Shown here: positions 2,029 through 20,578 of the stretch, piece after piece | Layout of the letters: every line of letters begins with the position of its first letter | How positions within the stretch are numbered: the stretch's first letter is position 1 | NCBI GenBank assembly: GCA_029974275.1 | Contig: JARKSN010000144.1 | Coordinates: 1 to 22,838 of the forward strand | Length of the DNA: 22,838 nt | Origin: Candidatus Hydrogenedentota bacterium | GTDB lineage: Bacteria; Hydrogenedentota; Hydrogenedentia; Hydrogenedentales; SLHB01 | Direction of reading: 5' to 3' | The notes under the pieces: model-generated | The model's input: the letters and a program-made list of their open reading frames with translations, nothing else | Databases searched by the model: none | What the model was told of the DNA's origin: nothing | Translations under genes and position numbers: made by a program

Positions 2029-3033
2029 GTGACGCCACGCGAACGTTTTGTCAAAGCCTTGACCTTCGACCGGCCCGACCGCGCCCCGCGCGACTTGTGG
2101 GCCTTGGCAGGAATCGGAATGTTCCGGCAAGCGGAATTCGACCAATTGCTGCAACGTTATCCGCTCGACTTGACCAACGTCGGCTCGCCATTCCCCAAGT
2201 CGCCGCGCGTTCAAGGCGCGCCCTCCACGAAGGGAATCTACATCGACGAATGGGGCACGGAATGGGTCTCCGCCGAAGACGGCGTCATCGGCGAAGTGAA
2301 AAATCCGATCCTGGCGGATTGGGACAAGCTGGCCGATTGGCAGCCGCCGCACGAATTGATCGATGGCGCGGATTGGGACGCCTTCAACCGCAAATGCGAA
2401 GCGACCGACGTCTTTCGCATGGCGGGCGGCGAGGTCCGGCCGTTCGAGCGCATGCAGTTTTTGCGCGGCACGGAAAACATTCTGCTGGACGTCGCGTTTC
2501 AGTCGCCGGAATTTTTCGAGCTGCGCGATCGCATCCACGCGTGGAACGTGCGCTATTTCGAGGGGCTTGCAAAATCGAAGGTCGACGCCTTCTTCATGAT
2601 GGACGACTGGGGGTCGCAGACAAGCCTGCTGATCTCGCCGGATATGTGGCGCGAACTGTTCAAACCCCTCTACAAAGAGTACTGCGACATCGCGCATGCA
2701 AACGGCAAGTTCTTCATGATGCACTCCGACGGCTACACGGAATCGATCATTCCCGATCTGATCGAGATCGGCGTGAACGCCCTGAACACGCAGATATTCT
2801 GCATGAACATCGAAGAACTCGCGAAACAGTTCAAGGGAAAAATCACGTTCTACGGCGAGATCGACCGCCAAAACATCCTGCCGTTCGGCACGCCCGACGA
2901 CGTGCGCGCCGCGGTCCGCCGTGTCCGCGCCGCACTCGACGACGGCACGGGCGGCTGCATCGCCCAGTGCGAATGGGGCAACACCGATCCCCGCGAAAAT
3001 ATCGAAGCCGTGTTCGAGACGTGGATGGAATGA
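2029..3033 (+). CDS. Uroporphyrinogen decarboxylase / MtaA-CmuA methyltransferase family protein
   Basis: Typical N-terminus (M)TPRERFVKALTFDRPDRAP (GTG 2029, AAAGGA upstream). Motifs DEWG, FERMQFLRGTENILLD, DDWGSQTSLLISPDMWRELFKP, HSDG, FYGEIDRQ, GTPDDVRAAV, ENIEAVFE. Confidence 0.88.
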   Translation: MTPRERFVKALTFDRPDRAPRDLWALAGIGMFRQAEFDQLLQRYPLDLTNVGSPFPKSPRVQGAPSTKGIYIDEWGTEWVSAEDGVIGEVKNPILADWDKLADWQPPHELIDGADWDAFNRKCEATDVFRMAGGEVRPFERMQFLRGTENILLDVAFQSPEFFELRDRIHAWNVRYFEGLAKSKVDAFFMMDDWGSQTSLLISPDMWRELFKPLYKEYCDIAHANGKFFMMHSDGYTESIIPDLIEIGVNALNTQIFCMNIEELAKQFKGKITFYGEIDRQNILPFGTPDDVRAAVRRVRAALDDGTGGCIAQCEWGNTDPRENIEAVFETWME

Positions 3034-3041
3034 AATAAGCA

Positions 3042-3186
3042 AGCGGGGGAAACCTCTTTGGAAAAAAGGTTTCCCCCGCTCCCCCTTCCAGAAACTTTTG
3101 TGTGCTGCGCAACCTACGCGCGAAGCGCCAACAAACGTTCTTGGGAAGGGGCGTGGGGATCCCTTCTTTCAAGAAGGCTTTCCTCA
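3042..3186. repeat. Pair of inverted REP-like palindromic units (REPIN/BIME-like)
   Basis: Perfect 14-bp stem AGCGGGGGAAACCT (3042-3055) / AGGTTTCCCCCGCT (3067-3080) with tail CCCCCTTCCAGAAACTTTT. A degenerate copy in the opposite orientation lies at about 3133-3186 (AAACGTTCTTGGGAAGGGGCGTGGGGATCCCTTCTTTCAAGAAGGCTTTCCTCA). Confidence 0.6.
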
Positions 3187-3208: not shown

Positions 3209-3871
3209 ATGGTCGTGATGGAGAAATGCCGACGACGGCTTGGGCCGGGCGTCGAGTTCCACTGTGAGGCGTTTCGCGCGCCGAGCGGGTCGCAGATTGC
3301 CTTGTGGGGACCGAGCGGCTGCGGCAAGTCGACGATGCTGAATCTGATCAGCGGCTTGTTGCGACCCGACTCCGGCGTGGTCCGGGTCGACGATGTCGAG
3401 ACCCAAACCTTGTCTGAGGGCCAACTCGACCGGTTCCGCGGCGAACGCGTCGGCCACATCTTCCAGACCTTCAACCTTCTCGCGCCCTTCACCGCATTGC
3501 AGAACGTGCTGCTCGGCATGCGCTTCAGCGACACCGTGCCACAATCCGAATGGAAGAAACGCGCGACGCACCTGCTCGAACGCGTCGGCCTCGGCCACCG
3601 CGTGCACAGCAAACCCAACACAATGAGCGTCGGCGAACGGCAACGCGTCGCCATCGCCCGCGCACTGGCCAATAAACAAAAACTGGTCGTCGCCGACGAA
3701 CCGACCGGCAGCCTCGATCCCAAAAGCGCGAAGGCCGTCATGGACCTGCTCCTCGAACTCTGCTCGGAGGAAGACGTGACGCTGCTGCTCGTGACGCATG
3801 ACATGGGCATCGCCGAACGCTTGCCGGAACGTTTCGACTGCACGCACCTCGCGCGCGAGGTGACGTCATGA
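3209..3871 (+). CDS. ABC transporter ATP-binding protein (LolD/MacB-type, ZrgB-like)
   Basis: ATG 3209 after AGAGGA. Walker A GPSGCGKS, Q-loop IFQTFNL, signature MSVGERQRVAIARAL, Walker B VVADEPTGSLD, H-loop VTHD. Confidence 0.93.
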   Translation: MVVMEKCRRRLGPGVEFHCEAFRAPSGSQIALWGPSGCGKSTMLNLISGLLRPDSGVVRVDDVETQTLSEGQLDRFRGERVGHIFQTFNLLAPFTALQNVLLGMRFSDTVPQSEWKKRATHLLERVGLGHRVHSKPNTMSVGERQRVAIARALANKQKLVVADEPTGSLDPKSAKAVMDLLLELCSEEDVTLLLVTHDMGIAERLPERFDCTHLAREVTS

Positions 3872-5253
3872 GTCTCTGGCACATCGCGTGGAGTTACCTC
3901 TGGAACCGCAAGCTGACGACCGTGCTAACGATTCTGTCGGTCGCGTTGGCGGTGGGGATGATCTCCGCCGTGCTGACATTACGTGAAGAAACAAAGAAAC
4001 GTTTCGAGGAAGAGAGCCAGGCATTCGATCTCGTCGTCGGCGCGAAGGGCAGTCCGCTCCAACTCGTATTGAGCAGCGTGTATTTCATGGACACGCCGAC
4101 CGGCGCAATCCTCTACTCCGATTACGAGAAACTGAAAGCCCTGCCGGACGTAACGGCGGCCTTTCCCATCGGCTTGGGCGACACGGTGAAGGGGTTTCGC
4201 ATCGTCGGCACGGACAAGGGGCTGTTGAGCCACCGTTGGATCAACGCCATCGGACAGGAGAAGGCTCCATTCCGGATTGCCGAGGGGCGCGTGTTCGAAA
4301 AACCCATGGAAGCCGTGCTGGGAAGCGTCGTGGCGCGGAAGACGGGCCTCAAGGTCGGCGACTCGTTTACCGGCACGCATGGATTCACCGAAGGCGTCGC
4401 AGGATCGGGACACGACCACAGCAACCAGCCCTATACGGTCGTGGGCCTGCTCGCGCCGTCAGGCACGCCGATGGACCGCGCCGCGTTCTGCGATCTGCGC
4501 TCCGTGTGGGAAGTGCACGGCCACCATGACGGCGAGGCAGAGGAAGAGCATCATCACGACGACGAGGCGGAAAGCGATCACGATCACGCCGATCGCCACG
4601 ACGGCGAACACGATCATGCCGCCGAAGCAACCGCCGGGAACGAACGCCCCGATGAAGACCATCATGACGACGGCGACGAAGAACCCGCCGACGGCACGGC
4701 GCGCGGCGATCAAGTGACGGCGATCCTGGTGCAGCTAAACAGTCCCGCGGCCCGCTTCCCCATGCGTCCGTACATCAACAAACACTTCAACGCGATGGCC
4801 GCCGTGCCGACCGACGAGATTCAAAAACTCTACAACCAGCTCCTGGGCGCCGCCAAGACCGTGTTGTTGACCATCGGCTATCTCGTAGTGGCCATTTCCG
4901 CGTTGTCGATCTTGATTGGCCTATACCTGTCGATCCTGCAACGCCGCCGCGACCTCGCCATCATGCGCGCGCTCGGCGCATCGGCGTATGAGATCGTCGG
5001 CGCGGTGCTCATCGAAGCCTTCTGGGTCACCCTGCTTGGAATCGGTTCTGGCTGGATACTGGGGCGCGGCCTCACCTTCGCGCTTGGGCAATACATGACC
5101 GAACGCTTCGGCATGACCATCAACGCATTCTCCTATAACGCCGAAGAGATCGGCGCCTTCGCGACCATCGCGCTCGTCGGCCTCATCGCGGGCATAGTCC
5201 CCGCGTGGCAGGCCTACCGCACCGACATCGCCCGCGACCTCGCGGAAAATTGA
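3868..5253 (+). CDS. FtsX/MacB-family ABC permease with His/acidic-rich extracytoplasmic insertion (ZrgC-like)
   Basis: ATGA overlap with the ATPase gene. One N-terminal TM, a large soluble domain with GAKGSPLQLVLSSVY and PIGLGD..KGFRIVGT, then RRRDLAIMRALGAS and three C-terminal TMs ending PAWQAYR. Confidence 0.9.
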   Translation: MSLWHIAWSYLWNRKLTTVLTILSVALAVGMISAVLTLREETKKRFEEESQAFDLVVGAKGSPLQLVLSSVYFMDTPTGAILYSDYEKLKALPDVTAAFPIGLGDTVKGFRIVGTDKGLLSHRWINAIGQEKAPFRIAEGRVFEKPMEAVLGSVVARKTGLKVGDSFTGTHGFTEGVAGSGHDHSNQPYTVVGLLAPSGTPMDRAAFCDLRSVWEVHGHHDGEAEEEHHHDDEAESDHDHADRHDGEHDHAAEATAGNERPDEDHHDDGDEEPADGTARGDQVTAILVQLNSPAARFPMRPYINKHFNAMAAVPTDEIQKLYNQLLGAAKTVLLTIGYLVVAISALSILIGLYLSILQRRRDLAIMRALGASAYEIVGAVLIEAFWVTLLGIGSGWILGRGLTFALGQYMTERFGMTINAFSYNAEEIGAFATIALVGLIAGIVPAWQAYRTDIARDLAEN

Positions 5254-5265
5254 GCCGCTGTTTGG

Positions 5266-5295
5266 TTGACACGCCTCGGATCAGATTGATACAAT
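5266..5295 (+). promoter_or_regulatory. Sigma70 promoter of the tRNA pair
   Basis: TTGACA (5266-5271), N18, TACAAT (5290-5295) with extended -10 TGn; ends 10 nt before tRNA-Gln. Confidence 0.8.
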
Positions 5296-5305
5296 GCCTC
5301 TGCAC

Positions 5306-5381
5306 TGCCGGATGGCCAAATTGGTAAGGCACCTGGCTCTGGACCAGGGGATTCTAGGTTCGAGTCCTAGTCCGGCAACCA
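5306..5381 (+). tRNA. tRNA-Gln (anticodon CTG)
   Basis: Acceptor stem TGCCGGA/TCCGGCA, anticodon arm CCTGG-CT-CTG-GA-CCAGG, T-arm CTAGG-TTCGAGT-CCTAG, encoded CCA. Confidence 0.97.
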
Positions 5382-5390
5382 GCTTTTCAG

Positions 5391-5416
5391 ACGCGGCAAC
5401 GCCGCGTGGTTTTTTT
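5391..5416 (+). terminator. Intrinsic-terminator-like hairpin in the tRNA spacer
   Basis: ACGCGGC-AAC-GCCGCGT followed by GG and T7. Confidence 0.5.
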
Positions 5417-5420
5417 GTGC

Positions 5421-5496
5421 GGCCCGTTCATCTAGGGGTCTAGGATGAAGGATTCTCAGTCCTTTCACAGGGGTTCGAATCCCCTACGGGCTGCCA
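5421..5496 (+). tRNA. tRNA-Glu (anticodon CTC)
   Basis: Acceptor stem GGCCCGT/ACGGGCT, anticodon arm AAGGA-TT-CTC-AG-TCCTT, T-arm AGGGG-TTCGAAT-CCCCT, encoded CCA. Confidence 0.97.
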
Positions 5497-5927
5497 TTGT
5501 TACCCCAATGACGTAGAGACTGTGCCCAAGCCGTCCCCAAACGGCGCCCAGTCCATCCCGCTGCGCCGGCACGTCCGCACCGGGCGTCCCGTGGGCGATC
5601 CCGATTTCGCCGCATCGTTCGAACCCATCCCGCGCTCCCCGCCAAACGAAAACCCAGGCCCAAAAGCTCGGAACGTCCGAACAGGAGACCCCGCAACAAC
5701 GAATGACGCATTGCGTCCCTATAATTCTCGCGATTCCCCAATACGCACAAGCCGCTTGCGTATTACAGAATGCTATGGCAAACTGACACACCGGGCGAAG
5801 CGGAGACGGGCAATCCTGTGTTGACACGTCGTGAAGCATCTTCCGGATCGCATTGGGCATGTGCGCCTTTTCTCGGCGGGGTTGGAACATGGGGGGCGAT
5901 CCGTCTTTGCGGAAAGGCGCGCGTGAA

Positions 5928-6110
5928 TCAGGCGGCGGGCGAGGCGGATTTCACCCCGGAAAGAGACGCATGGAGTTCCGCAAAGGCGGCCTCCGCGCAT
6001 ACGGGACAGTATCCGTGGCTGATATGACAACACGCACTCAACGGGGATGTGATGTCAACCCAGCGCTTTCCTTTTCGTATTTTCTTGCAAACGCAGCATT
6101 GAACGAGCAT
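5928..6110 (-). CDS. Small stand-alone zinc-ribbon protein (CxxC...W...SHGxCPxC), about 60 aa
   Basis: MLVQCCVCKKIRKGKRWVDITSPLSACCHISHGYCPVCAEAAFAELH... from ATG 6110, with GAGGTG RBS just upstream. Confidence 0.78.
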   Translation of the reverse strand: MLVQCCVCKKIRKGKRWVDITSPLSACCHISHGYCPVCAEAAFAELHASLSGVKSASPAA

Positions 6111-6308
6111 CTTGCGCACCTCGCCTTTCCTAGGTTGTGTGCCTCGTATGACGCTCATATGCAGACCTCGTGCCAGCGCGCCCGCTGCAGGGCGCGCTTG
6201 ACTAAACAGATTGTAAACATTACAGTTATGCCCAGGAAACGTGAAACTTTCCAGGGGCAGTCTCTGCCGCCTTGCCGATGCAAGCGGAAGAATTTGCCTC
6301 GTACATTA

Positions 6309-6337
6309 ATTATTGACCAGACGGCTCGGGTTGTCAA
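6309..6337 (-). promoter_or_regulatory. Candidate sigma70 promoter for the zinc-ribbon gene
   Basis: Minus strand TTGACA-N17-AATAAT, implying a leader of about 190 nt. Confidence 0.5.
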
Positions 6338-6407
6338 GTGTTTCTGCGCGAGATGACGCTGCGATCAACCCGTTTTCACCGGGGCATAATGCAAAAGCGG
6401 GGCGTTT

Positions 6408-7331
6408 ATGATTGAAGTCGAAGGACTTACAAAATACTACGGAGCCAGCCCAGCAATCCGTGACCTTTCTTTTCGCATCGAAAAAGGAGAAATCGTTGGG
6501 TTTCTTGGCCCCAATGCCGCCGGAAAAACCACGACCATGCGCATCCTGACGGGTTTTTTCCCGGCCACAAGCGGCACGGCGCAGGTGGCGGGCTTCGACG
6601 TAGCCGAGGCGCCCATCGAGGTGAAACGCCGGGTCGGCTATCTCCCCGAAAGCGTGCCCCTATATACGGAGATGCTCGTAAATCGATTTCTATCGTACGT
6701 GGCCGAAATCAAAGGCGTTTCCCGCTCAAACCGAAAACGGGAAGTGGGCCGCGTGTTGGAGAGGTGCGGCCTCGACACCGTGCGCGATCGCATTATCGGA
6801 CATCTGTCGAAGGGATATCGGCAACGCGTCGGCCTGGCCCAGGCATTGGTAGGCGATCCGCCCGTGCTCATTCTCGACGAACCCACGGTGGGGCTCGATC
6901 CAAAACAAATCATCGAGATCCGCCAAACCATCAAGGACCTCGCCAACGATCACACCGTTCTGCTCAGCACCCACATCCTGCCCGAGGTGGCCATGGTGTG
7001 CCAACGCGTCCTCATCATCCACCGGGGACGGATCGTTGCCGAAGACAGCATGGATCGCCTGACCGGCGCATCCGACACGATCGAGATAGAGGCGGAAGGC
7101 CCCGTCGAGACGGTTTTGACGGCGATCCGGTCCGTGGCGGGATCGCTCCAGGTCGAATGCACGGGCCGAGGACAATACAAGACGCATGGCGCCGCAGACG
7201 CCGCGACGCGCCGGCAGTTGTCGGAGGCGCTCGTTTCGGCGGGATGCGGCATCTCGTTGTTGCGCCCGGTCGGCCGCACCTTGGAAGACGTCTTCGTCGA
7301 AGCCACTTCGGGTCAGGAGGACGCCGCGTGA
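6408..7331 (+). CDS. ABC-2 transporter ATP-binding subunit (GldA-like)
   Basis: GFLGPNAAGKTTTMRILTG, GYLPE, LSKGYRQRVGLAQAL, LILDEPTVGLDPKQI, LSTHILPEV, C-terminal TLEDVF. Confidence 0.93.
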   Translation: MIEVEGLTKYYGASPAIRDLSFRIEKGEIVGFLGPNAAGKTTTMRILTGFFPATSGTAQVAGFDVAEAPIEVKRRVGYLPESVPLYTEMLVNRFLSYVAEIKGVSRSNRKREVGRVLERCGLDTVRDRIIGHLSKGYRQRVGLAQALVGDPPVLILDEPTVGLDPKQIIEIRQTIKDLANDHTVLLSTHILPEVAMVCQRVLIIHRGRIVAEDSMDRLTGASDTIEIEAEGPVETVLTAIRSVAGSLQVECTGRGQYKTHGAADAATRRQLSEALVSAGCGISLLRPVGRTLEDVFVEATSGQEDAA

Positions 7332-8158
7332 AGAATGCATGGCCGGTGTTCCGACGCGAATTCACGAGTTACTTCGTGACGCCGATGGGGTATGTCGTCG
7401 TTGGCGTGTTCGCCGCGATCATGGGCATGGGTTTTACACTGCAATTCGTGATGTACTCCTGGCAATCCCAAGCCCCAAGCGCGTATGGACTGACCGCCGT
7501 GCCCGATTTCGAGGAACAGATGCTGGCCCCCTTCATGATTTTCTGCGGGTTCCTCATCATGTTTCTCGGGCCGCTCGTGACGGGCCGCCTGCTCGCCGAA
7601 GAACGTCACCACGGCACCATGGAACTGCTCTTGACGCATCCCCTGCGCGACGGCGAGATCATTTTCGGCAAATACCTCGCGGCGCTGGGAATGCTCGTGG
7701 TCATGATGTCCCTGCTTGCCGTCCCGTCGCTCATTCTCATCCACTTCACGGACGTCGAGCCCGCCGTATTGGGCATGGGCGCACTCGCCGTCTTTCTAAT
7801 GGGCGCGGCGTTCTTGAGCTGGGGCTTGTTCATCTCGGCCATGGCGAACAATCAGGTGACGGCGGGCGTATTGACGTTCGGCCTATGGTTCGTCTTCTTC
7901 ATCCTGGGCAAAATTGGCGACGGCATGCCCGAAAAGATCGCGACGCCTTCGGCATGGCCCACGACGGTGACGCACAGCGTCCTGTTTTTGTACGGCATCC
8001 TGCGCGGGCTCGTGCGCGAATTGCCCCTGGACGCGCACGCCGCCCACATGGCCCAGGGCGTCGTCGAGCCGCGCGACATCGCCTACTACCTCCTGTTCAC
8101 GGCCTTCTTCCTGTTCCTGACGTTCCGCGCGTTCGAATCGCGCCGGTGGAGGGGGTGA
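7328..8158 (+). CDS. ABC-2 permease (GldF-like)
   Basis: GTG 7328 overlaps the upstream stop (GTGA). (M)KNAWPVFRREFTSYFVTPMGY, LLAEERHHGTMELLLTHP, IIFGKYLA, GLFISAMANNQVTA, DIAYY, ESRRWR; six hydrophobic segments. Confidence 0.9.
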   Translation: MKNAWPVFRREFTSYFVTPMGYVVVGVFAAIMGMGFTLQFVMYSWQSQAPSAYGLTAVPDFEEQMLAPFMIFCGFLIMFLGPLVTGRLLAEERHHGTMELLLTHPLRDGEIIFGKYLAALGMLVVMMSLLAVPSLILIHFTDVEPAVLGMGALAVFLMGAAFLSWGLFISAMANNQVTAGVLTFGLWFVFFILGKIGDGMPEKIATPSAWPTTVTHSVLFLYGILRGLVRELPLDAHAAHMAQGVVEPRDIAYYLLFTAFFLFLTFRAFESRRWRG

Positions 8159-9821: not shown

Positions 9822-11674
9822 AATTGCGCGGCACAATCCTGCTGATCGGCGTGTTTGCCGCCTTGACCGCCGCATATTTCTACATGCTGCACGCCCAGAA
9901 GACATCGCGCCAGACAGCCGCCGAAGCGAAAAAAATGTTCGTCGCCCTCGCGCCCGAAGATGTCGTCGCGCTCCGCATCGAACAAATCGATCAACGCCCC
10001 GTCGTCGGCGTTCGCGGCGAAAACAACCAATGGACCATCACCGATCCCGACGCCTCGATCGCCGCAAGCCAACCCGTTTGGGACTACGCCGCCGCGGGAA
10101 TCGCGAGCCTCATGAACGAGCGCACCATCGAGGAACAGCCCGCAAGCCTCAAACCCTACGAATTGGACGAACCGCGCCTCGCCGTTGAGGCGCAGACAAG
10201 ACCGGGCCAAAAGATTCGGCTGATTTTCGGAAAAATGGAGCCGACCCAGCAATGCCGGTATGCGCAACTGGACGGCGGCCCGGTGTTTCTGGCGAAAGAA
10301 GACGCCTTCTTCCTGCTGAACCGATCGCTGCTGGAATTGCGCCAACGGTATATATTCACTTTCGACGAAACAGGGCTGATGCGCGTCGAATTCGTGCGCG
10401 TGCGCCGCGTAACGCCCGCCGCGCCCGAGGAAACACGCGATCCCGCCGCCTCGACTTCCATCGAAACCGAAGAATCCATCCCCGTCGTATTGGAGCGATC
10501 CCCCAGGAACGCGTGGAGACTCGTCAAACCCGTGGAAGCCCCCGCCGACCAGGAAGCGGTCAACGAGTTCGTGCGCCAGCTCCAATTCGCGACCGCCCTA
10601 CGCTACATCGAAACGCCGGAAAGTCTCGCCGACTACGGGCTCGATCCCCCCCTGGCGCGAATATCCGTATGGACCGACCTGGACGGCCCGCCGCAAACGG
10701 TCTTTCTCGGAGCGGTCGAGCACGAACAAAAGGGAGGCGGGTTGTTCATGCGCCGTTCGGATTCGACCGCCGTGTTCACGGTCGATCGCATGATACTCGA
10801 CAAAATGCCCAAAAGCCCCGAAGCTTTCCGCGAAAAGCGCCTGTTTTCGAAAAGCGCCGGTTCGCTCTCGCGCATCCGATACCAAGACAACAACGGAACC
10901 TTCACCCTTGCCAAGGACCCCGTCAAAGGATGGCGGATGATCGAGCCCCCCGCCGACGACACGGACCAATTCGCCGTGTCGCAGTACATCGCGTTTTTGA
11001 CAACCCTCGACGTCATGGGATTTCCCGGCGACCCGCAGCCCGCGTTCGGACTCGACCCGCCCACTTCCCAGTTCACTTTCGCATTTGACGATGGCTCCGA
11101 GTCCTCCATCAAACTCGGCGCCGCCACCGCCGACGGCTTGGCATATTACGCAACGCAGGACACCGGCCAGGTCGTGACCCTCTCCTCCGCGACAGGAAAA
11201 ATACTGGTGCGCACGCCTTTCGATTTCCGGGGCAAAACCCTCCTCGCGTCCGACCCGGAGACGGCGCGAAGCCTTGCGTTGACTCTCGATGGCGAGGAAT
11301 ACGCCTTCGAACGGGCAGCGGGAGGCTGGCGTGTCCGCGCGCCCGCCAATAAGGTATGGGACAGTCCCAGCGACATGCAGGCCCTGCTCGAAGCCATCGC
11401 CACGGTCAAGGCCGAACGCCAGGAAACCGAGACGACTCCCGATGACCTCTCCCCTTATGGCCTCGACGCGCCCACCCTTGCGCTACGCGTCGCCAGCCTT
11501 TCAAAAGATGGGAAACAAAGCGTTTCGATCGGGCCAATCGCCATCGGCGCGCCCGCGCCTGACGACCCCCGCGCCCGCTTTGCCACGGCAAAGGACACGC
11601 CGGGCGTCTACCGCGTCTCTCAAGATGTCCTCGACAACATCCGCGAAGCCCTGAAGGGATTACGCACGCGATAG
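9818..11674 (+). CDS. DUF4340-type repeat protein (membrane-anchored), about 618 aa
   Basis: ATG 9818 overlaps the GldG-like stop (ATGA). N-terminal TM, then four W...(Y/F)(G/E)LD.P units (PYELDEP, DYGLDPP, AFGLDPP, PYGLDAP). This is the usual fourth gene of GldAFG-type operons. Confidence 0.8.
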   Translation: MKLRGTILLIGVFAALTAAYFYMLHAQKTSRQTAAEAKKMFVALAPEDVVALRIEQIDQRPVVGVRGENNQWTITDPDASIAASQPVWDYAAAGIASLMNERTIEEQPASLKPYELDEPRLAVEAQTRPGQKIRLIFGKMEPTQQCRYAQLDGGPVFLAKEDAFFLLNRSLLELRQRYIFTFDETGLMRVEFVRVRRVTPAAPEETRDPAASTSIETEESIPVVLERSPRNAWRLVKPVEAPADQEAVNEFVRQLQFATALRYIETPESLADYGLDPPLARISVWTDLDGPPQTVFLGAVEHEQKGGGLFMRRSDSTAVFTVDRMILDKMPKSPEAFREKRLFSKSAGSLSRIRYQDNNGTFTLAKDPVKGWRMIEPPADDTDQFAVSQYIAFLTTLDVMGFPGDPQPAFGLDPPTSQFTFAFDDGSESSIKLGAATADGLAYYATQDTGQVVTLSSATGKILVRTPFDFRGKTLLASDPETARSLALTLDGEEYAFERAAGGWRVRAPANKVWDSPSDMQALLEAIATVKAERQETETTPDDLSPYGLDAPTLALRVASLSKDGKQSVSIGPIAIGAPAPDDPRARFATAKDTPGVYRVSQDVLDNIREALKGLRTR

Positions 11675-11711: not shown

Positions 11712-13178
11712 TCAAAACCCTTCAACGCGAACGCCCAACGGCGGCGGCGCCGTCGGGGATTCGCGCGTGTCGAGGAAATGCGCGAGGACGGCGCAGCGGT
11801 CCGCATCGATCAGATGATCGTTGCCCTTCTCGTAGACGATCTGACCGTTCGCGTTGGTCGAGTAGGTGTGCGACGCATATTGCTGTTCGCGCTCGGCCAG
11901 GCGCGGAAACACCAGGGCACGGTCCGCCATGCCGCGTTGCAGCAGTTCGGTCATGAACGCCTTGGCCGGGCGGCGATGCGGCGTCCCGTCGGGGAATGGC
12001 TCCAACTCGACGCTCCCGCCGAACTCGAACGCCCGCACCTTCTCGCACCAATCCGCGCCCAATGCCATGAGATTATGCGCGACGGCCCGGCCACTGTTGC
12101 CGCAGTCGATGCCCACCACGCGGAAATCGTAGGCGCGATCGAGTTCTTGGAGGATTGCCTGTTGCCGCGCATAGTTAACGCCGCGAAGATGCACGCGCAG
12201 GACATTGATCAAGTGCGGCGGCTCGGAGCGGTACACGACATACTCCGACGGATCCCGCGCATAGCCCAGATCGCAACCCAGATAGTGCGCGCCCGGCGCC
12301 ACGCCAAACGGCGCGACAAAGGCATCGCCCTCATTCAAAAAAATGTCTTCGAATGCAACGCCGTCCTGCACGCATTCGAGGTAATCATCGAGGTTGAACA
12401 CGGCATGCGCGGGCGAACCGTGCAGGCCCAGCACACGATGCACGTAGCCCGGCGAGTCCTTGCCGCCGTAGAGCAACGTCAACTCCGCGTCCTTCTCCGC
12501 CGTGAACGACGGATTCAACGACGACGGCCAGTTGTACTGCTCGGCGTCCTTCATCTGCGTCATGCGATGGAACGTGTTGCGCAGGCCGTTCGGCACGCCA
12601 TAGACCCAGCGCCGACCTCCGCCGTTCAGCGCTTGATACAACTCGCCCCAGGCGCTCTCGGTCATCTCCTGCGCTTCATCGACGATCTGCCAATCGACGT
12701 GCAGGCCTTGGAAGTTGATCCCGCGCGGCCCCGCGATGCGGCCCCACAACACAAAGCCATTCGAGAACCGCAGAAACCACGACGGCGACCGCTTCATCTC
12801 GACGAGACTCGACGCGAATTCCGGCGTTGTCTGGAACCGACGTACGAGACGGTGCATCAACGGAAACAGATGGTTCTCGCACTGCGCGGCGATGAGCATC
12901 TCGGTGTTCGGTCGCGCGACCATCGCCCACGCCGCGATCAACTCGATCTCCGCCGTCTTGCCCACGTCGCGTCCGTCGCAATGCACCTTGCGCAACACGT
13001 GCGATTCGAGCGACCCCGCCTGGTACGCACGCGGCGTCCACGATTTCCCCGCGCCGTCCCGGATATACCGCTGGGCGAACGCCGCGCGGTTGTGGAGACC
13101 CAACCAGCCCTCTATCTCCTCGCGCGACATCCCTCTGCCGCACAACAACCCCGCCGCACGCGGTTTATTCAGCTTCAT
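11712..13178 (-). CDS. terL: Phage-type terminase large subunit (ATPase plus RNase H-like nuclease)
   Basis: Adenine-binding PRAYQ, Walker A DGRDVGKT, QGLHVD then Walker B WQIVDEAQ, coupling-motif position YGVPNG, NP motif SSLNPSF, nuclease YLGCDLGYARDPS, VGIDCGNSG and C-terminal NDHLIDADR. Alternative start at ATG 13130. Confidence 0.88.
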   Translation of the reverse strand: MKLNKPRAAGLLCGRGMSREEIEGWLGLHNRAAFAQRYIRDGAGKSWTPRAYQAGSLESHVLRKVHCDGRDVGKTAEIELIAAWAMVARPNTEMLIAAQCENHLFPLMHRLVRRFQTTPEFASSLVEMKRSPSWFLRFSNGFVLWGRIAGPRGINFQGLHVDWQIVDEAQEMTESAWGELYQALNGGGRRWVYGVPNGLRNTFHRMTQMKDAEQYNWPSSLNPSFTAEKDAELTLLYGGKDSPGYVHRVLGLHGSPAHAVFNLDDYLECVQDGVAFEDIFLNEGDAFVAPFGVAPGAHYLGCDLGYARDPSEYVVYRSEPPHLINVLRVHLRGVNYARQQAILQELDRAYDFRVVGIDCGNSGRAVAHNLMALGADWCEKVRAFEFGGSVELEPFPDGTPHRRPAKAFMTELLQRGMADRALVFPRLAEREQQYASHTYSTNANGQIVYEKGNDHLIDADRCAVLAHFLDTRESPTAPPPLGVRVEGF

Positions 13179-13650
13179 CGTCGCGCACTCCCCCGTCTTC
13201 TTCGCCGAGCGACGCCTCGTACACCCCTTCGGCCTTCATCAGCAACGGACGAAAAAGATCGGCCACGCCGAAAGTTTGGCGCGCGGGCTCGGCGCGGTGC
13301 AGCGCCGATTCGAGTTCGGTCAATGCCTTGCGGAGCCGTTCGCGCGCTTTGCCTGCAGCTTCGAGGGCGGGATGGGCGGTCGCGGGTTTGGCGGCGTCGC
13401 CGGCTTTTTCCAGCATCACGCCCTCGTTCCACAGCAATGATTCAAGCCGCCCCACCAACCAATACGACGCGAGCACATCCTCGATGCGCATGAGCAGAAT
13501 CGGCGCAGCCCCCCCATCCCTTTCGCCGCACGCCGCGACCACCTCGCGCACAAACCGCCGCCCAAAGGCTTGTTCGCGCGGCGTGAGCGGTCCCGCGCCG
13601 CGCCAGATGCCGCACTGCCGCATCGGCAGTGATTCGAATGCGACCTTCAT
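13165..13650 (-). CDS. Putative terminase small subunit (P27-family-like), 161 aa
   Basis: ATG 13650 with GGAGG upstream; lies directly upstream of terL and overlaps its first ATG by 14 nt. Helical segment LASYWLVGRLESLLWNEGV...AHPALEAAGKARERLRKALTELE resembles the EG...(N/H)PA...L.EL pattern of P27-type TerS. Acidic C-terminal tail. Confidence 0.6.
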   Translation of the reverse strand: MKVAFESLPMRQCGIWRGAGPLTPREQAFGRRFVREVVAACGERDGGAAPILLMRIEDVLASYWLVGRLESLLWNEGVMLEKAGDAAKPATAHPALEAAGKARERLRKALTELESALHRAEPARQTFGVADLFRPLLMKAEGVYEASLGEEDGGVRDDEAE

Positions 13651-13697
13651 TTTGTTTTTGCCTCCGCGTTTTTGCGTCAAGCAGTCTCTTGTATCTT

Positions 13698-13709
13698 GAA
13701 CATTGGTTC
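13698..13709. promoter_or_regulatory. GAAC-N4-GTTC palindrome (LexA/Cheo-box-like) upstream of terS-terL
   Basis: tGAAC-ATTG-GTTCt, about 48 nt upstream of ATG 13650 in the intergenic region. Confidence 0.5.
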
Positions 13710-13852
13710 TGTGCGCGCTTCGGCGGCGCGTGGCAGACACAGCCCTATCTGTAAGGGGCGCTCTGTTGCATGGCGTTTGCGCATCGTGTTGCGCCGCTTC
13801 TGAAAGGCGGCAAAATGAAATGGCGTGAACGGATAGAGGCGCGCGCGCGTTC

Positions 13853-13894
13853 CAAAACGACATCGGCGCCATCCCTTTCGGGACGGCGCCGATG
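13853..13894 (-). terminator. Hairpin terminator after the FNR gene
   Basis: Minus strand CATCGGCGCCGTCCC-GAAA-GGGATGGCGCCGATG (15-bp stem with one G-U pair) then TCGTTTT, starting 25 nt after the stop at 13919. Confidence 0.7.
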
Positions 13895-13918
13895 AATTTC
13901 AGAAAAGGGATCGCGGCG

Positions 13919-14779
13919 TTAGTAAAGCAGTTCGAACCAGCGCTTGGCGCCTTTGAGTTCGTTTTTCTTCTGCTCCCATTGCAAGTCCGATCCGGCGATC
14001 TTGGCCATGGCCTTGTCGAAGAGCGCGCCGACTTTTTCGAGTCCGCCAAGGTAGACATAGGTCTTCGGGTCTTGGAGCATGCCCCACACTTCGTCGCCGT
14101 TCGCTTCGATGGCTTTGTCGAGAGCGACGTTCGGATCGACGAAGGGGCGAGCGCTGAGGGCTTGGAAGGCTTGGAACGTCTTTTGATCATAATACAGCGC
14201 GAAATCGTTGCGCTCGTCGTTCATATAGATGAGATCAAATCCGTGCTGTGCGCCGAAGAAGAGCCTTACCTTCCCCTTCCAGCCGCCGACGCTCTCGTAG
14301 ATGTGCTTGACGAACGCGCGGAACGGGGCGATGCCCGTGCCCAAGCCGATCATCAGGATGTTGCAGGTGGTGTCTCCGGGAACGACAAAGGCGCTGCCGT
14401 AAGGCCCCGCCATCTGGAGGGTGTCGCCCTCTTTCAGATTGCAGATGTAGTTCGAGGCGATGCCGGGACGCTCCTCGCCGCTGAAATCGTCGATATACCG
14501 GCACCGGCGAACGCACAGCGAAATCATGTTCTGGCCTCGCTCTTCCTTGCGTGTGCTGGCAATCGAATACAGGCGCACATGATCCTTGTTTCCGAATTCG
14601 TGCGGGCCGGGAATCATCACCGCGACGCTCTGGCCTTCGACGAAATCCAGGGGCGTTCCCGTAATGTCCAGATCGATGTGCCGCACTTCCTCTTTGGACT
14701 CGGGCGGCGTGATGCGCTCCGAGGACACCACCGTGGCGGTGAATGCGTTGCTGATGTCATATTCTTCCAGTCGCGCCAT
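13919..14779 (-). CDS. Ferredoxin-NADP+ reductase, plant-type (PetH/BoxA reductase-like)
   Basis: EGQSV, RLYSIAS (FAD binding), GIASNYICNL, GPYG, MIGLGTGIAPFRAF, LFFG, ALS, YVYLGGL, C-terminal Tyr. GGAGGAG RBS. Confidence 0.9.
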   Translation of the reverse strand: MARLEEYDISNAFTATVVSSERITPPESKEEVRHIDLDITGTPLDFVEGQSVAVMIPGPHEFGNKDHVRLYSIASTRKEERGQNMISLCVRRCRYIDDFSGEERPGIASNYICNLKEGDTLQMAGPYGSAFVVPGDTTCNILMIGLGTGIAPFRAFVKHIYESVGGWKGKVRLFFGAQHGFDLIYMNDERNDFALYYDQKTFQAFQALSARPFVDPNVALDKAIEANGDEVWGMLQDPKTYVYLGGLEKVGALFDKAMAKIAGSDLQWEQKKNELKGAKRWFELLY

Positions 14780-16754: not shown

Positions 16755-17354
16755 GTGGCACGGTTGCGAGAAACGCGAACACAAACGGATGCCGGCCTGG
16801 TGGCGGAATGCCAGCAGGGCGATGCGGCCGCATTTGATGAGCTTGTCCGGCGTTACAAGGATCGGGTGTATCATGTAGCGTACCGGTTCGTAGGCAACCA
16901 CGAGGACGCGCTGGATGTCGCCCAGGAGGTGTTCCTCCGGGCTTACCGAGGCATCGACGGGTTCCGGGGCGCGGCCCAGGTGTACACTTGGTTGTATAGC
17001 ATCGCGGCGAACCTGGCGAAGAATTGGTTGCGCGACGGCAAACGGAAAGGTCGGGACCGCGCCACGCCGCTCGATTCGGCGAGATCTTCCGACGAGCCGT
17101 CGCCGGAGCGCGCGGTGAGTTCCGATACGCCCCGGCGGCAGGCCATGAGCCATGAGTTAGAGGAAACCCTGCAGCGGTGCCTGGATGAATTGCCGGAACC
17201 CTGCAGGATGACCTTCGTATTGCGGATATACGAGGACATGAGTTACGAGGAGATCGCCGAAGCGATGGGGTGTCCGACGGGCACGGTGAAATCGCGTCTC
17301 AATCAGGCGCGCGCCATGCTGCGCGAACGGCTACGGGCCCTGTCGCTGGCATAG
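16755..17354 (+). CDS. ECF sigma-70 factor (RpoE/SigW-like)
   Basis: DAGLVAECQQGDAAAFDELVRRY, DALDVAQEVFLRAY, YTWLYSIAAN, region 4 LDELP...MSYEEIAEAMGCPTGTVKSRLNQAR. Confidence 0.95.
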   Translation: MARLRETRTQTDAGLVAECQQGDAAAFDELVRRYKDRVYHVAYRFVGNHEDALDVAQEVFLRAYRGIDGFRGAAQVYTWLYSIAANLAKNWLRDGKRKGRDRATPLDSARSSDEPSPERAVSSDTPRRQAMSHELEETLQRCLDELPEPCRMTFVLRIYEDMSYEEIAEAMGCPTGTVKSRLNQARAMLRERLRALSLA

Positions 17355-17360
17355 GGGAAC

Positions 17361-18413
17361 ATGAGCGACGAAGCAGACGATATGCGCGAGGACTACTCGC
17401 CGCTGCTCGACGGGGAACTGTCCCCGGAACGCCGCGCGGCCATCGAGGCGCGCCTGGCCGAATCGGCGGAGGAGTTGCGCGAGTTCGAAGCGTTGCGGCG
17501 CGTGGACGAGTTGTTTCGTGCATTGCCGCGCCATGCCGCGCCCCCGGCATTCGAGGCAAGCGTGCGCGAGGCCATTGCGTCGCAGTCGGCGCCGCCGGTC
17601 CTTCGAATGCGGCGCAAAACCGTGTTTCCGCGGGTGGGTCTCGCGGCGGCGGCCCTGTTGCTCGTCGTGAGCGGCGTGTGGTTTTTCGTCCACGCACCTC
17701 GTGAGGATCGCTTCATGACCGCCTCTACGAAATCACGCGATTCCTCCTCCTATCAGACCCAATCGCCGGAAAACCATCTCGCCGGAGACGCCGGCGCCGC
17801 GCGCATGGAAACGGAAAAATCGGATGAGAATTTTTTCTTTTCGGACAGATCCCCCGCGCCCCGCGCCGAAACTCAAGCAGACTCGCTTGCCGCATCCACC
17901 GCCCCGCCAACCGCCGCATTCGCGAAAACGCCCCCTGCGTCAGCGCCGCCGGGAATTGCCGTTCGAGCGGATCCAGAGCCTCCCGCCTCGCAGACAACGA
18001 CCTTGTCTGCGCCGCCGGCGTCGCCGGTCGCCGTGGAAGCCCCCCTCTCGCACCCTAGCAACCCGGAAATCGTTTCGCGAGAAAAGACGGACGGAACGAT
18101 TCACGACATCGAGGCGTTTACGATAGGGGCACAGGAAGGGAAGGCCTCGCGTGGGGCAGGAGGGCTGAACGCGCCGCAGACAGAGCAGACGGCCAAACGC
18201 GTTTTTGTGTTGCGGGAGAACGCATGGGTGCAACAAGAATACGCCCAGGAACCGGCGAAAACCGTCGCGCGCGATTCGTCCGTCGTGCGCGCTCTCATGG
18301 AGCACGACGAAGACCTGCGCAATCTACTGGACCTCCTGGAGGCCCCTGTCATCGTGCGCGTCGACACGACGTGGTATCATATCCAGGCAAAGAAATCGCC
18401 CGTCCCAAAATGA
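17361..18413 (+). CDS. Transmembrane anti-sigma factor
   Basis: Follows the sigma gene after 6 nt. N-terminal SPLLDGELSPERRAAIEARL (anti-sigma domain pattern), single TM GLAAAALLLVVSGVWFFV, Pro/Ala/Ser-rich linker, small globular C-terminal domain. Confidence 0.85.
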   Translation: MSDEADDMREDYSPLLDGELSPERRAAIEARLAESAEELREFEALRRVDELFRALPRHAAPPAFEASVREAIASQSAPPVLRMRRKTVFPRVGLAAAALLLVVSGVWFFVHAPREDRFMTASTKSRDSSSYQTQSPENHLAGDAGAARMETEKSDENFFFSDRSPAPRAETQADSLAASTAPPTAAFAKTPPASAPPGIAVRADPEPPASQTTTLSAPPASPVAVEAPLSHPSNPEIVSREKTDGTIHDIEAFTIGAQEGKASRGAGGLNAPQTEQTAKRVFVLRENAWVQQEYAQEPAKTVARDSSVVRALMEHDEDLRNLLDLLEAPVIVRVDTTWYHIQAKKSPVPK

Positions 18414-19385: not shown

Positions 19386-20578
19386 TCTGCGGCGAGGGTC
19401 TGCACGATGCGCGTCTCGATGCGTTGAGCGACCGCGTCCCATGTCAGATCGCGATCGGCGCGCGCCCTGCCCGCCTGCCCCATGCGAAGACGCAGCGCCG
19501 GGTCGTCCAAGAGCGCGACAACCGCGCGCGCGGCATCCTCGGGATCCTCCGGATCGACCAGAAAACCGGTCTCGCCGTGAACGATCGCATCGGGGACGCC
19601 GCCCGCCCGGCCCCCAATCACTGGCAGGCCATAGTGCCCGGCCTCGACGTAAACAATCCCAAACCCTTCGACGCTGCGTCCCGGAATCATACGGCTGGGC
19701 ATCGCGAACACATCTGCGGCGCAATAATACTGCGCCAGCAAATCGTCATCGAACACGCCCTCGAAACGAACCTGCCGCGCGCATCCCGTTTCATCCGCCA
19801 GCGCCTTGAGGCGATCGAGGTCCGGCCCTCCGCCTGCAACCACATAGGTGATGTCCGGATGTCGGCGCGCGATCGAGGGCAGTGCGCGGATCATGATATC
19901 GACGCCCTTTCGCGGCACCAAACGGCACACGCTGAGCAGAACAGGGCCATCGCCCAAACCAAGGCGTTCGCGCGCGGCGCGCTTCGTCACTGCAGGGGCC
20001 AGCCGTTCCGGACTGATCCCGCAGCCAATGACGGCGGGATTGGCCCGCGTTCCATACCACTCGCGCACGCGTTCTGCCGTAAACCGGCTATTGCAATATA
20101 TGTCCCGCATGCTGTCCAACGCCTTGCGAAACATCCATTGCCTGTGCGGGCGCATTTTGGCCACCTGCAGAATGTCCATGCCGTGAAACACCACGCCGCA
20201 CGGACAGCCCAACGCGCGCAATGATCGCCCCAGCCAAAAACCGTTGCCATGACGCAAACGCAGGTTTTCCGTAAAAAGAACATAGGCAATGCCGCGCTCA
20301 CGGACCGTCCGCGCCAAGCGTTTCCGGATCGCGCACACCTGGCGCGCCCCCTGCACGCCGCGCCACATTCCCTCGCGCCCCTCAGGAAGGGCCCGGACCA
20401 CCTCGAATGGCATGGCCAAGGGAACGTCCGCAGACGCGCCCTCCCGCGCGAACACCGTCACGCCCCATCCGCGCCGATGCAACGCGTCGGCCACGCTATA
20501 CGACAATTCCGCCGTTCCGCCAAGGTCCGGCTTGAACTCGTAGCAGAAAAGCAGAATCGGTTTCGTCAACGCAGCCAT
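19373..20578 (-). CDS. Glycosyltransferase family 4 (GT-B fold, PimB-like), about 401 aa
   Basis: ATG 20578 after GGAGAGG. EFKPDLGGTA, FHGMD, NSRFT, LLSVCRLVPRKGVD, ADVFAMPSR, EGFGIVYVEA (EX7E), GGVPDAIVHGETGFLV. Confidence 0.92.
   Translation of the reverse strand: MAALTKPILLFCYEFKPDLGGTAELSYSVADALHRRGWGVTVFAREGASADVPLAMPFEVVRALPEGREGMWRGVQGARQVCAIRKRLARTVRERGIAYVLFTENLRLRHGNGFWLGRSLRALGCPCGVVFHGMDILQVAKMRPHRQWMFRKALDSMRDIYCNSRFTAERVREWYGTRANPAVIGCGISPERLAPAVTKRAARERLGLGDGPVLLSVCRLVPRKGVDIMIRALPSIARRHPDITYVVAGGGPDLDRLKALADETGCARQVRFEGVFDDDLLAQYYCAADVFAMPSRMIPGRSVEGFGIVYVEAGHYGLPVIGGRAGGVPDAIVHGETGFLVDPEDPEDAARAVVALLDDPALRLRMGQAGRARADRDLTWDAVAQRIETRIVQTLAADHRD

Follow-up and report, generated by a model that had tools for sequence, protein, structure and literature searches.

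A gene for a large terminase subunit (TerL), complete and selectively maintained, lies among host genes on a single contig (C145) of a Candidatus Hydrogenedentota genome of 4.38 Mb in 342 contigs; the contig was analysed whole, and its 22,838 bp are referred to here as the window. TerL, of 488 amino acids (aa; 11712..13178, minus strand), follows an open reading frame (ORF) of 161 aa (13165..13650, minus strand), a candidate small terminase subunit (TerS) termed the small ORF below; both are intact. Together they are probably the packaging module of a domesticated, dispersed particle system resembling gene transfer agents (GTAs), vertically inherited by Hydrogenedentota. A first-pass annotation, drawn from the letters of the window and its translated reading frames, had proposed a retained, host-owned packaging motor as one locus of a dispersed GTA-like system, and this idea is strengthened by near-universal presence, a tree that follows taxonomy and low dN/dS; its dispersed-locus part is also backed by portal, capsid and tip genes on another contig and by a promoter-like motif common to the two loci. 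The description of TerL as an orphan is not sustained: matching portal, capsid and tip genes are carried by contig C163 of the same genome.

A large terminase maintained across the phylum

The AF2 model of TerL, built on 30 homologues (pLDDT 84), found full-length T4 gp17 as its best match in a Foldseek search of the PDB (3.4e-18), followed by the terminases of D6E, HK97 and Sf6. The ATPase domain matches those of T4 gp17 and P74-26, and the nuclease domain those of G20c, P74-26, P22 and SPP1; structure prediction, which the first-pass annotation had suggested as a check, thus returned solved large terminases for both domains. The motifs that it had read from the sequence are all present and in order: YQ (residues 52-53), GRDVGKT (69-75), IVDEAQ (165-170), GCDLG (301-305), GID (356-358) and DHLIDAD (454-460). 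Walker A (G69-T75, GRDVGKT) and Walker B (D167-E168) of the N-terminal ATPase are invariant in 30 sequences, as are the acidic residues D303, D358, D454, D458 and D460 of the C-terminal RNase H-like nuclease. Sequence profiles are less sensitive to the protein: no curated terminase family matched it (Pfam, E up to 0.01; NCBIfam, E up to 0.1), terL matches among the PHROGs were weak (best terL E 0.0018), and phmmer aligned residues 49-201 with 4zni at E 0.0087. A profile search of 1.84 billion representatives returned 1,493 relatives of TerL; among 38 of these distant relatives run against Pfam, nine match Terminase_6N/6C weakly and three carry inteins, as phage terminases do. The clusters nearest to TerL bear no recorded name.

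The comparisons with related genomes suggested at first pass for the most part favour a gene owned by the host. TerL is found in 123 of the 135 genomes of the phylum, in 83/86 of those of high quality and in 60/66 genera, at 53-75% identity to the window genome; RecA, searched in the same way as a control, is found in 126/135 (66-86% identity), a frequency close to that of TerL. On a tree of TerL from 44 genomes the GTDB family labels need 9 changes, the smallest number that could occur; after shuffling of the labels the mean is 18.6, and 0/200 shuffles came down to 9. Genera g18, g30, g9, g57 and g53 each form a single group. Nei-Gojobori dN/dS for TerL is not near 1: it lies at 0.03-0.13 in 13 within-genus pairs, one further pair being saturated, and at 0.14 and 0.22 in two pairs between genera. 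Synteny with the Gld-like operon and the ferredoxin-NADP reductase (FNR) gene that flank TerL in the window, also put forward for comparison, was not seen, these neighbours accompanying TerL at 0/12 loci from other genomes. The codon style of TerL had been judged by eye to be that of the host, and the measured usage agrees, its distance to the genome mean standing at the 33rd percentile of 3301 long ORFs; GC3 is 0.81.

Other TerL genes occur in the phylum. Second copies at loci L079 (G106:C42) and L080 (G107:C24) are about 68-72% identical, and the portal gene is not duplicated with them; one of the two lies beside an IS200-like transposase and one is in three pieces. Bona fide prophage-like elements, each with an integrase, a phrog_2 TerL and a phrog_2739 portal, were seen at L077 (G132:C5) and L082 (G006:C1), the former also carrying a 1567-aa minor head protein, primase, helicase and methyltransferase, and the latter a methyltransferase and an endolysin. 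The TerL proteins of these two elements are only 34-35% identical to that of the window.

The small ORF sits in a longer frame (13165..14190, minus strand), in which the ATG at 13650, preceded by GGAGG, gives a protein of 161 aa; its end overlaps the TerL ATG by 14 nt, in keeping with the overlapping, intact upstream ORF first described. Homologues of 31-45% identity lie upstream of TerL and on the same strand in 32 of the 44 genomes examined, sharing the core GKARERLRKAMKELE...GLAD..KPLL. The AF2 model consists of four long helices (pLDDT 77). The P27-TerS-like pattern that had been discerned in this protein was not confirmed: Pfam and NCBIfam gave no match for the window protein, and a PDB profile search gave designed helical proteins only. 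No Foldseek match reached E 0.001, HK97 TerS appearing only at E 3.5 (TM 0.40/0.50); VIA-align returned generic helical bundles with Z up to 8.4, which is within noise for helical models, and hhalign against HK97 gp1 gave a probability of 0.1. PF05119 was matched by 1/18 members of the small-ORF family, weakly (E 0.0053), and language-model features placed the protein at 0.92 to a Terminase_4 cluster, with recognition below the usual level. We regard the small ORF as a candidate TerS by position only, a role that on balance we favour.

The head and tip block and a promoter-like motif

Portal, protease-like, scaffold-like, capsid and tip genes, of the kind that the first pass had proposed to seek in the rest of the genome, are on C163, which carries a homologue of the Mu-type portal lying beyond TerL in G034; seven head and tip genes lie together there on the minus strand (locus L033, 208-8063). 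In order of transcription they encode a Mu-type portal (6627-7901; PF06074; phrog_3753, 5e-49); p275 (5803-6630; phrog_16951); p295 (4883-5770), which has no match and is a scaffold by position; an HK97-type major capsid protein (MCP; 3368-4396; phrog_3922, 2e-52); p147 (2660-3103; no match); a Dit-like protein (1970-2656; PF22768); and p580, a tip protein of 580 aa with an embedded staphylococcal-nuclease (SNase) domain (208-1950). We take p275 to be prohead protease-like from its position, its conserved His/Ser and CxxC...CxH columns and the known motifs of such proteases; a PDB profile search with it gave 0 matches. Next to the block is a URO-D-like host gene; Pfam and PHROGs revealed no integration, replication or lysogeny genes on C163. 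GC3 is extreme in the MCP (0.87) and portal (0.81) genes, at least at the 96th percentile of the ORFs of the genome.

In 25 of 29 other genomes the genes run unchanged as portal-p275-p295-MCP, while in the other four the row is split or cut by contig ends. The block continues to p580 in 18 of the genomes examined, with insertions of 1.5-2.3 kb in some; no tube or tape-measure gene lies within the conserved block. The portal is present in 121/135 genomes of the phylum, almost always in one copy, at 48-83% identity to that of the window genome. A tree of portal and MCP from 23 genomes needs 9 family changes, against 14.4 when labels are shuffled (0/200 as low). The head genes of G002, a genome of another class (L073; G002:C101), are 66-75% identical to those of the window genome; for RecA of G002 the figure is 66%.

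TerL in the window genome is not beside the portal gene, which is on C163. The distance between the two varies widely across the phylum. Three genomes have them within 0.8-2 kb: G118 and G084 at about 1 kb, and the closed genome G034, where a Mu-type portal lies beyond TerL, at 2 kb. In G063 the distance is 9 kb, in G113 53 kb, in G107 138 kb, in G092 about 1 Mb and in the closed genome G069 1.5 Mb. G118 holds the small ORF, an opposite-strand esterase gene, TerL and the genes from portal through p580 within about 12 kb. Among 2.9 million viral contigs the sole relative found, at 38% identity, is L122 (41% GC), in which TerL, portal and p275 are contiguous and 33-38% identical to this system. 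The arrangement on L122 shows TerL-portal-p275 to be the ancestral phage order. Twelve loci outside family f1 have a gene for a 3D-domain protein that separates the small ORF from TerL. In nine loci, these too outside f1 and drawn from several families (L021, L022, L027, L028, L037, L041, L042, L047 and L049), an opposite-strand gene for a BD-FAE-type esterase stands directly before TerL, next to the small ORF or the 3D-domain gene; this is either an insertion of long standing that has been conserved or a component of the system that has gone unrecognised.

The ATG of the small ORF is preceded, at a distance of 92 nt, by a promoter-like motif, TGCAAC-N16-GATAGG (13743..13770, minus strand). 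The general form of the motif is TGCAAC followed after 14-17 nt by a TA-containing element (TGCAAC-N14-17-TA), and the two sites in the window genome read TGCAACAGAGCGCCCCTTACAGATAGGG (window 13770-13743) and TGCAACACGCTGGGCCAGTAGATACAG (C163, before the portal gene). In 15/23 genomes the 250 nt leading up to the small ORF contain TGCAAC, mostly at 30-120 nt, and in 12/26 it lies upstream of the portal gene, at 20-80 nt; the background is 5.4% of 250-nt windows in the loci and 3.4% (138/4015) of ORF upstream regions in the window genome. A second count, by position in the operon, placed the motif before 23/44 operon heads (small ORF 11/18, portal 12/26) and before 9/157 other genes of the system. 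The strength of this putative promoter element is its recurrence across genomes. A loose pattern has 46 matches genome-wide, with two in the window against 0.05 expected; the second of these (20478-20503, plus strand), antisense inside a GT4 glycosyltransferase gene, is probably a chance match.

Two further genes of the window genome that carry the motif are suggestive. One encodes an Amidase_2 protein, an endolysin-type wall hydrolase (C222 55146-55790, plus strand; locus L119); it is found in 3/135 genomes, and in G117, the nearest relative, it lies 2 kb upstream of the portal gene. The other, preceded by the motif, encodes a 212-aa fusion of Phage_Mu_F with a barnase-type ribonuclease (C315 9605-10243, minus strand; L096 1498-2136), which resembles the MuF polymorphic toxins; it is full-length in 3/135 genomes (G000, G117 and G092), and 16 more have domain-only matches. 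A 114-aa ORF follows the fusion gene and could be its immunity gene. Being restricted to few genomes, both were rejected as core parts and are treated as lineage-specific accessories. Hsp20, a BlaI-like repressor, PTS EIIA and other carriers of the loose pattern were likewise set aside as members of the regulon, their matches probably being due to chance.

Surroundings and assembly of the terminase locus

The immediate neighbours are those named at first pass. A convergent DUF4340 ORF ends at 11674, leaving 37 nt between it and TerL, and closes the row ABC-ATPase, ABC-2 permease, GldG-like protein, DUF4340; on the upstream side is the FNR gene (13919-14779, minus strand), past which come genes for a methyltransferase, an ECF sigma factor, a GT4 glycosyltransferase and a sulfatase. 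The flanks had been described as free of virion and integrase genes, and Pfam, run on 28 further ORFs of the window, gave no family of integrases or of portal, capsid, tail or lysis proteins. A terminator-like hairpin with a 15-bp stem and a T run (13861..13894, minus strand), identified by a consensus scan only, follows directly after the FNR stop; it looks strong and would set the small ORF and TerL apart from FNR as a separate transcription unit. The ECF sigma factor gene and a 350-aa ORF without a Pfam match, possibly an anti-sigma factor, occupy 16755-18413 (plus strand), 3 kb from the TerL operon.

The first pass had voiced concern about an assembly chimera at either junction. In a second sample from the same study one contig spans 10800-12050 and another 13587-14692, each with 0 differences; both junctions are thereby reproduced. 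No contig from other studies bridged either junction.

Competing explanations and known systems

The genes have two of the marks of a GTA: in the window and on C163, structural and packaging genes stand in a host genome that offers no integration, replication or lysogeny genes beside them, and they are vertically inherited under purifying selection across the clade, with the head tree of G002 a possible exception. They do not have what marks a prophage, integrase, replication and lysogeny genes being absent from the window and C163 and the distribution being near-universal. If the two loci serve one particle, a common signal would bring about the transcription of both operons, and the portal, protease, scaffold and capsid proteins would build proheads. 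The small protein would recruit DNA to TerL, which would dock on the portal, cut the DNA by its nuclease domain and pump it in by ATP hydrolysis, and a short, tube-less tip of p147, the Dit-like protein and p580 would close the particle. With its genes scattered, by up to 1.5 Mb, such a particle should be unable to carry its complete blueprint as one unit, and would therefore act as a GTA or other host-serving carrier of DNA, and not as a virus.

Several points weigh against this assignment. The particle system is known here from genes alone, and the motif was defined post hoc from these very upstream regions; the single RNA contig found covers only 13812-14057 and not TerL. Genes for a tail tube, a tape measure or a holin did not come to light, the whole genome not having been searched for them, and the small ORF lacks a significant TerS match by fold or HMM. 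On the head tree the genes of G002 nest inside f1, with weak support, possibly through horizontal movement of the head block. The remaining points touch the tie between the two loci and speak at the same time for a rival explanation, that TerL and its small partner were exapted for work that does not involve capsids, serving the host as an ATP-driven nuclease/translocase, for example in DNA processing or defence, and are tied to the head genes by history only. TerL and portal occur together in 110 genomes against 110.2 expected if they were independent, and so no more often than by chance, and the pairwise divergences of TerL and of the head genes are weakly correlated (Mantel r 0.32, 103/2000 permutations as high). 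Several genomes have extra copies of TerL with only one portal; G072 (97% complete, 40 contigs) keeps an intact TerL locus with small ORF and 3D protein, no portal or MCP being found; and f9, f13 and f14 have retained the head module in all their genomes (4/4, of which three are at least 95% complete), with no TerL detectable even by profile. However, a purely historical link fits poorly with a promoter-like motif common to the portal operon, with the contiguity of the genes in G118, G034, G084 and one viral contig, and with the near-universal presence of TerL and portal alike; both terminase domains and all catalytic residues have been kept, and the extra copies lie beside a transposase or are broken. 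A capsid-independent role thus appears unlikely, while keeping some weight from the few lineages in which TerL or the head genes are each kept alone.

Two other explanations have less to recommend them. A prophage remnant, or the trace left by a widespread family of temperate phages infecting the phylum again and again, would suit the phage origin of the genes, the presence in the phylum of bona fide prophages whose TerL is related (34-46% identity) and the odd place of the G002 head genes on their tree; but TerL is mostly single-copy, at about the frequency of RecA, on a tree that follows taxonomy and with dN/dS of 0.03-0.13, neither locus of the window genome has an integrase, replication or lysogeny gene, host genes are interleaved, the two loci lie up to 1.5 Mb apart, and no close relative was found among the viral contigs. 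This explanation is largely refuted, and we give it very little credence. Scarcely more probable is a device of defence: a terminase of the host that jams incoming related phages by competing for their proheads or DNA or by blocking these, or that serves a capsid-forming satellite borrowing the tails of a helper phage. Capsid-forming satellites are not known to carry tails, the conserved block is without tail tube or tape measure, and related phages infect the phylum; against this, the system has portal, capsid and tip genes of its own, and its scattered loci make an element that cannot mobilise itself. Pfam scans found no defence genes beside the locus in the window, a scan against a defence-system library not being included.

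Beyond a packaging module of a dispersed GTA-like system, we would offer a wider view as a rather doubtful conjecture: that Hydrogenedentota own a phylum-wide, tube-less DNA-packaging particle with a nuclease-bearing tip, of an origin independent of all known GTAs, whose scattered operons form one regulon with a dedicated promoter, TGCAAC-N16-TAnnG, and whose lineage-specific accessories could let it deliver DNA and an effector. Lineages would plug accessories such as a 3D-domain or Amidase_2 wall hydrolase into the regulon, and in the window genome the MuF-ribonuclease fusion could ride in the capsid. Were this true, delivery of DNA together with an effector would blur the distinction between gene transfer agent and killer particle.

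To our knowledge GTAs have been recognised in only a few lineages. A system domesticated separately and shared by a whole phylum, in bacteria common in wastewater and digesters, would add a new exaptation from virus to organelle-like structure, and an unusual one in its tail-less build and its detached, apparently co-regulated loci. Annotators may take it as a warning that 'orphan' terminases without a Pfam match can be core host genes. The analysis adds the link between the two halves, the promoter-like motif common to them and the lineages in which they are decoupled. Our literature search, in which GTA papers were judged by title, found no description of a GTA or terminase system in Hydrogenedentota or Hydrogenedentes; the words 'hydrogenedent' and 'terminase' are absent from the available part of PMC13626063. 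A newly reported GTA outside the Alphaproteobacteria, that of gut Faecalibacterium (PMC12946183), shows domesticated elements mobilising host DNA by means of capsids in a phylum different from that studied here.

With the large terminases of tailed phages (T4 gp17, 3cpe; D6E, 5oea; HK97, 6z6d; Sf6 gp2, 4idh; P74-26, 4zni) TerL has in common the two-domain fold, the arginine Walker A (GRDVGKT), the Walker B DE and the RNase H-like acidic residues. It differs in being only 12-19% identical to them, with no Pfam Terminase family reaching E 0.01, and in being chromosomal, near-universal in its phylum and, in the window genome, not followed by a portal gene. The cf-PICI and other tail-less head modules resemble the present system in combining genes for head and packaging while lacking a tail tube, whereas such satellites are mobile islands with an integrase and dependence on a helper, and the Hydrogenedentota genes are scattered, vertically inherited and free of an integrase.

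RcGTA of Rhodobacter capsulatus, an alphaproteobacterium, is encoded by host-owned, phage-derived genes that include TerS, TerL, portal, protease and capsid and extend to a Dit-type gene. The Hydrogenedentota system shares with GTAs of this type a gene set that runs from packaging to Dit-type protein and lacks integrase and replication genes, vertical descent throughout a large clade, purifying selection and the use of more than one chromosomal locus. Unlike RcGTA, it is of independent origin, with a Mu-type portal (PF06074) and a TerL undetected by Pfam; its conserved block has an SNase-bearing tip and lacks genes for tail tube, tape measure and terminator; and a variable distance separates its packaging operon from that of the head, in a system known from genes alone. 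In organisation the Hydrogenedentota system is thus closest to the GTAs, from which it is set apart by an independent origin and an apparently tube-less build.

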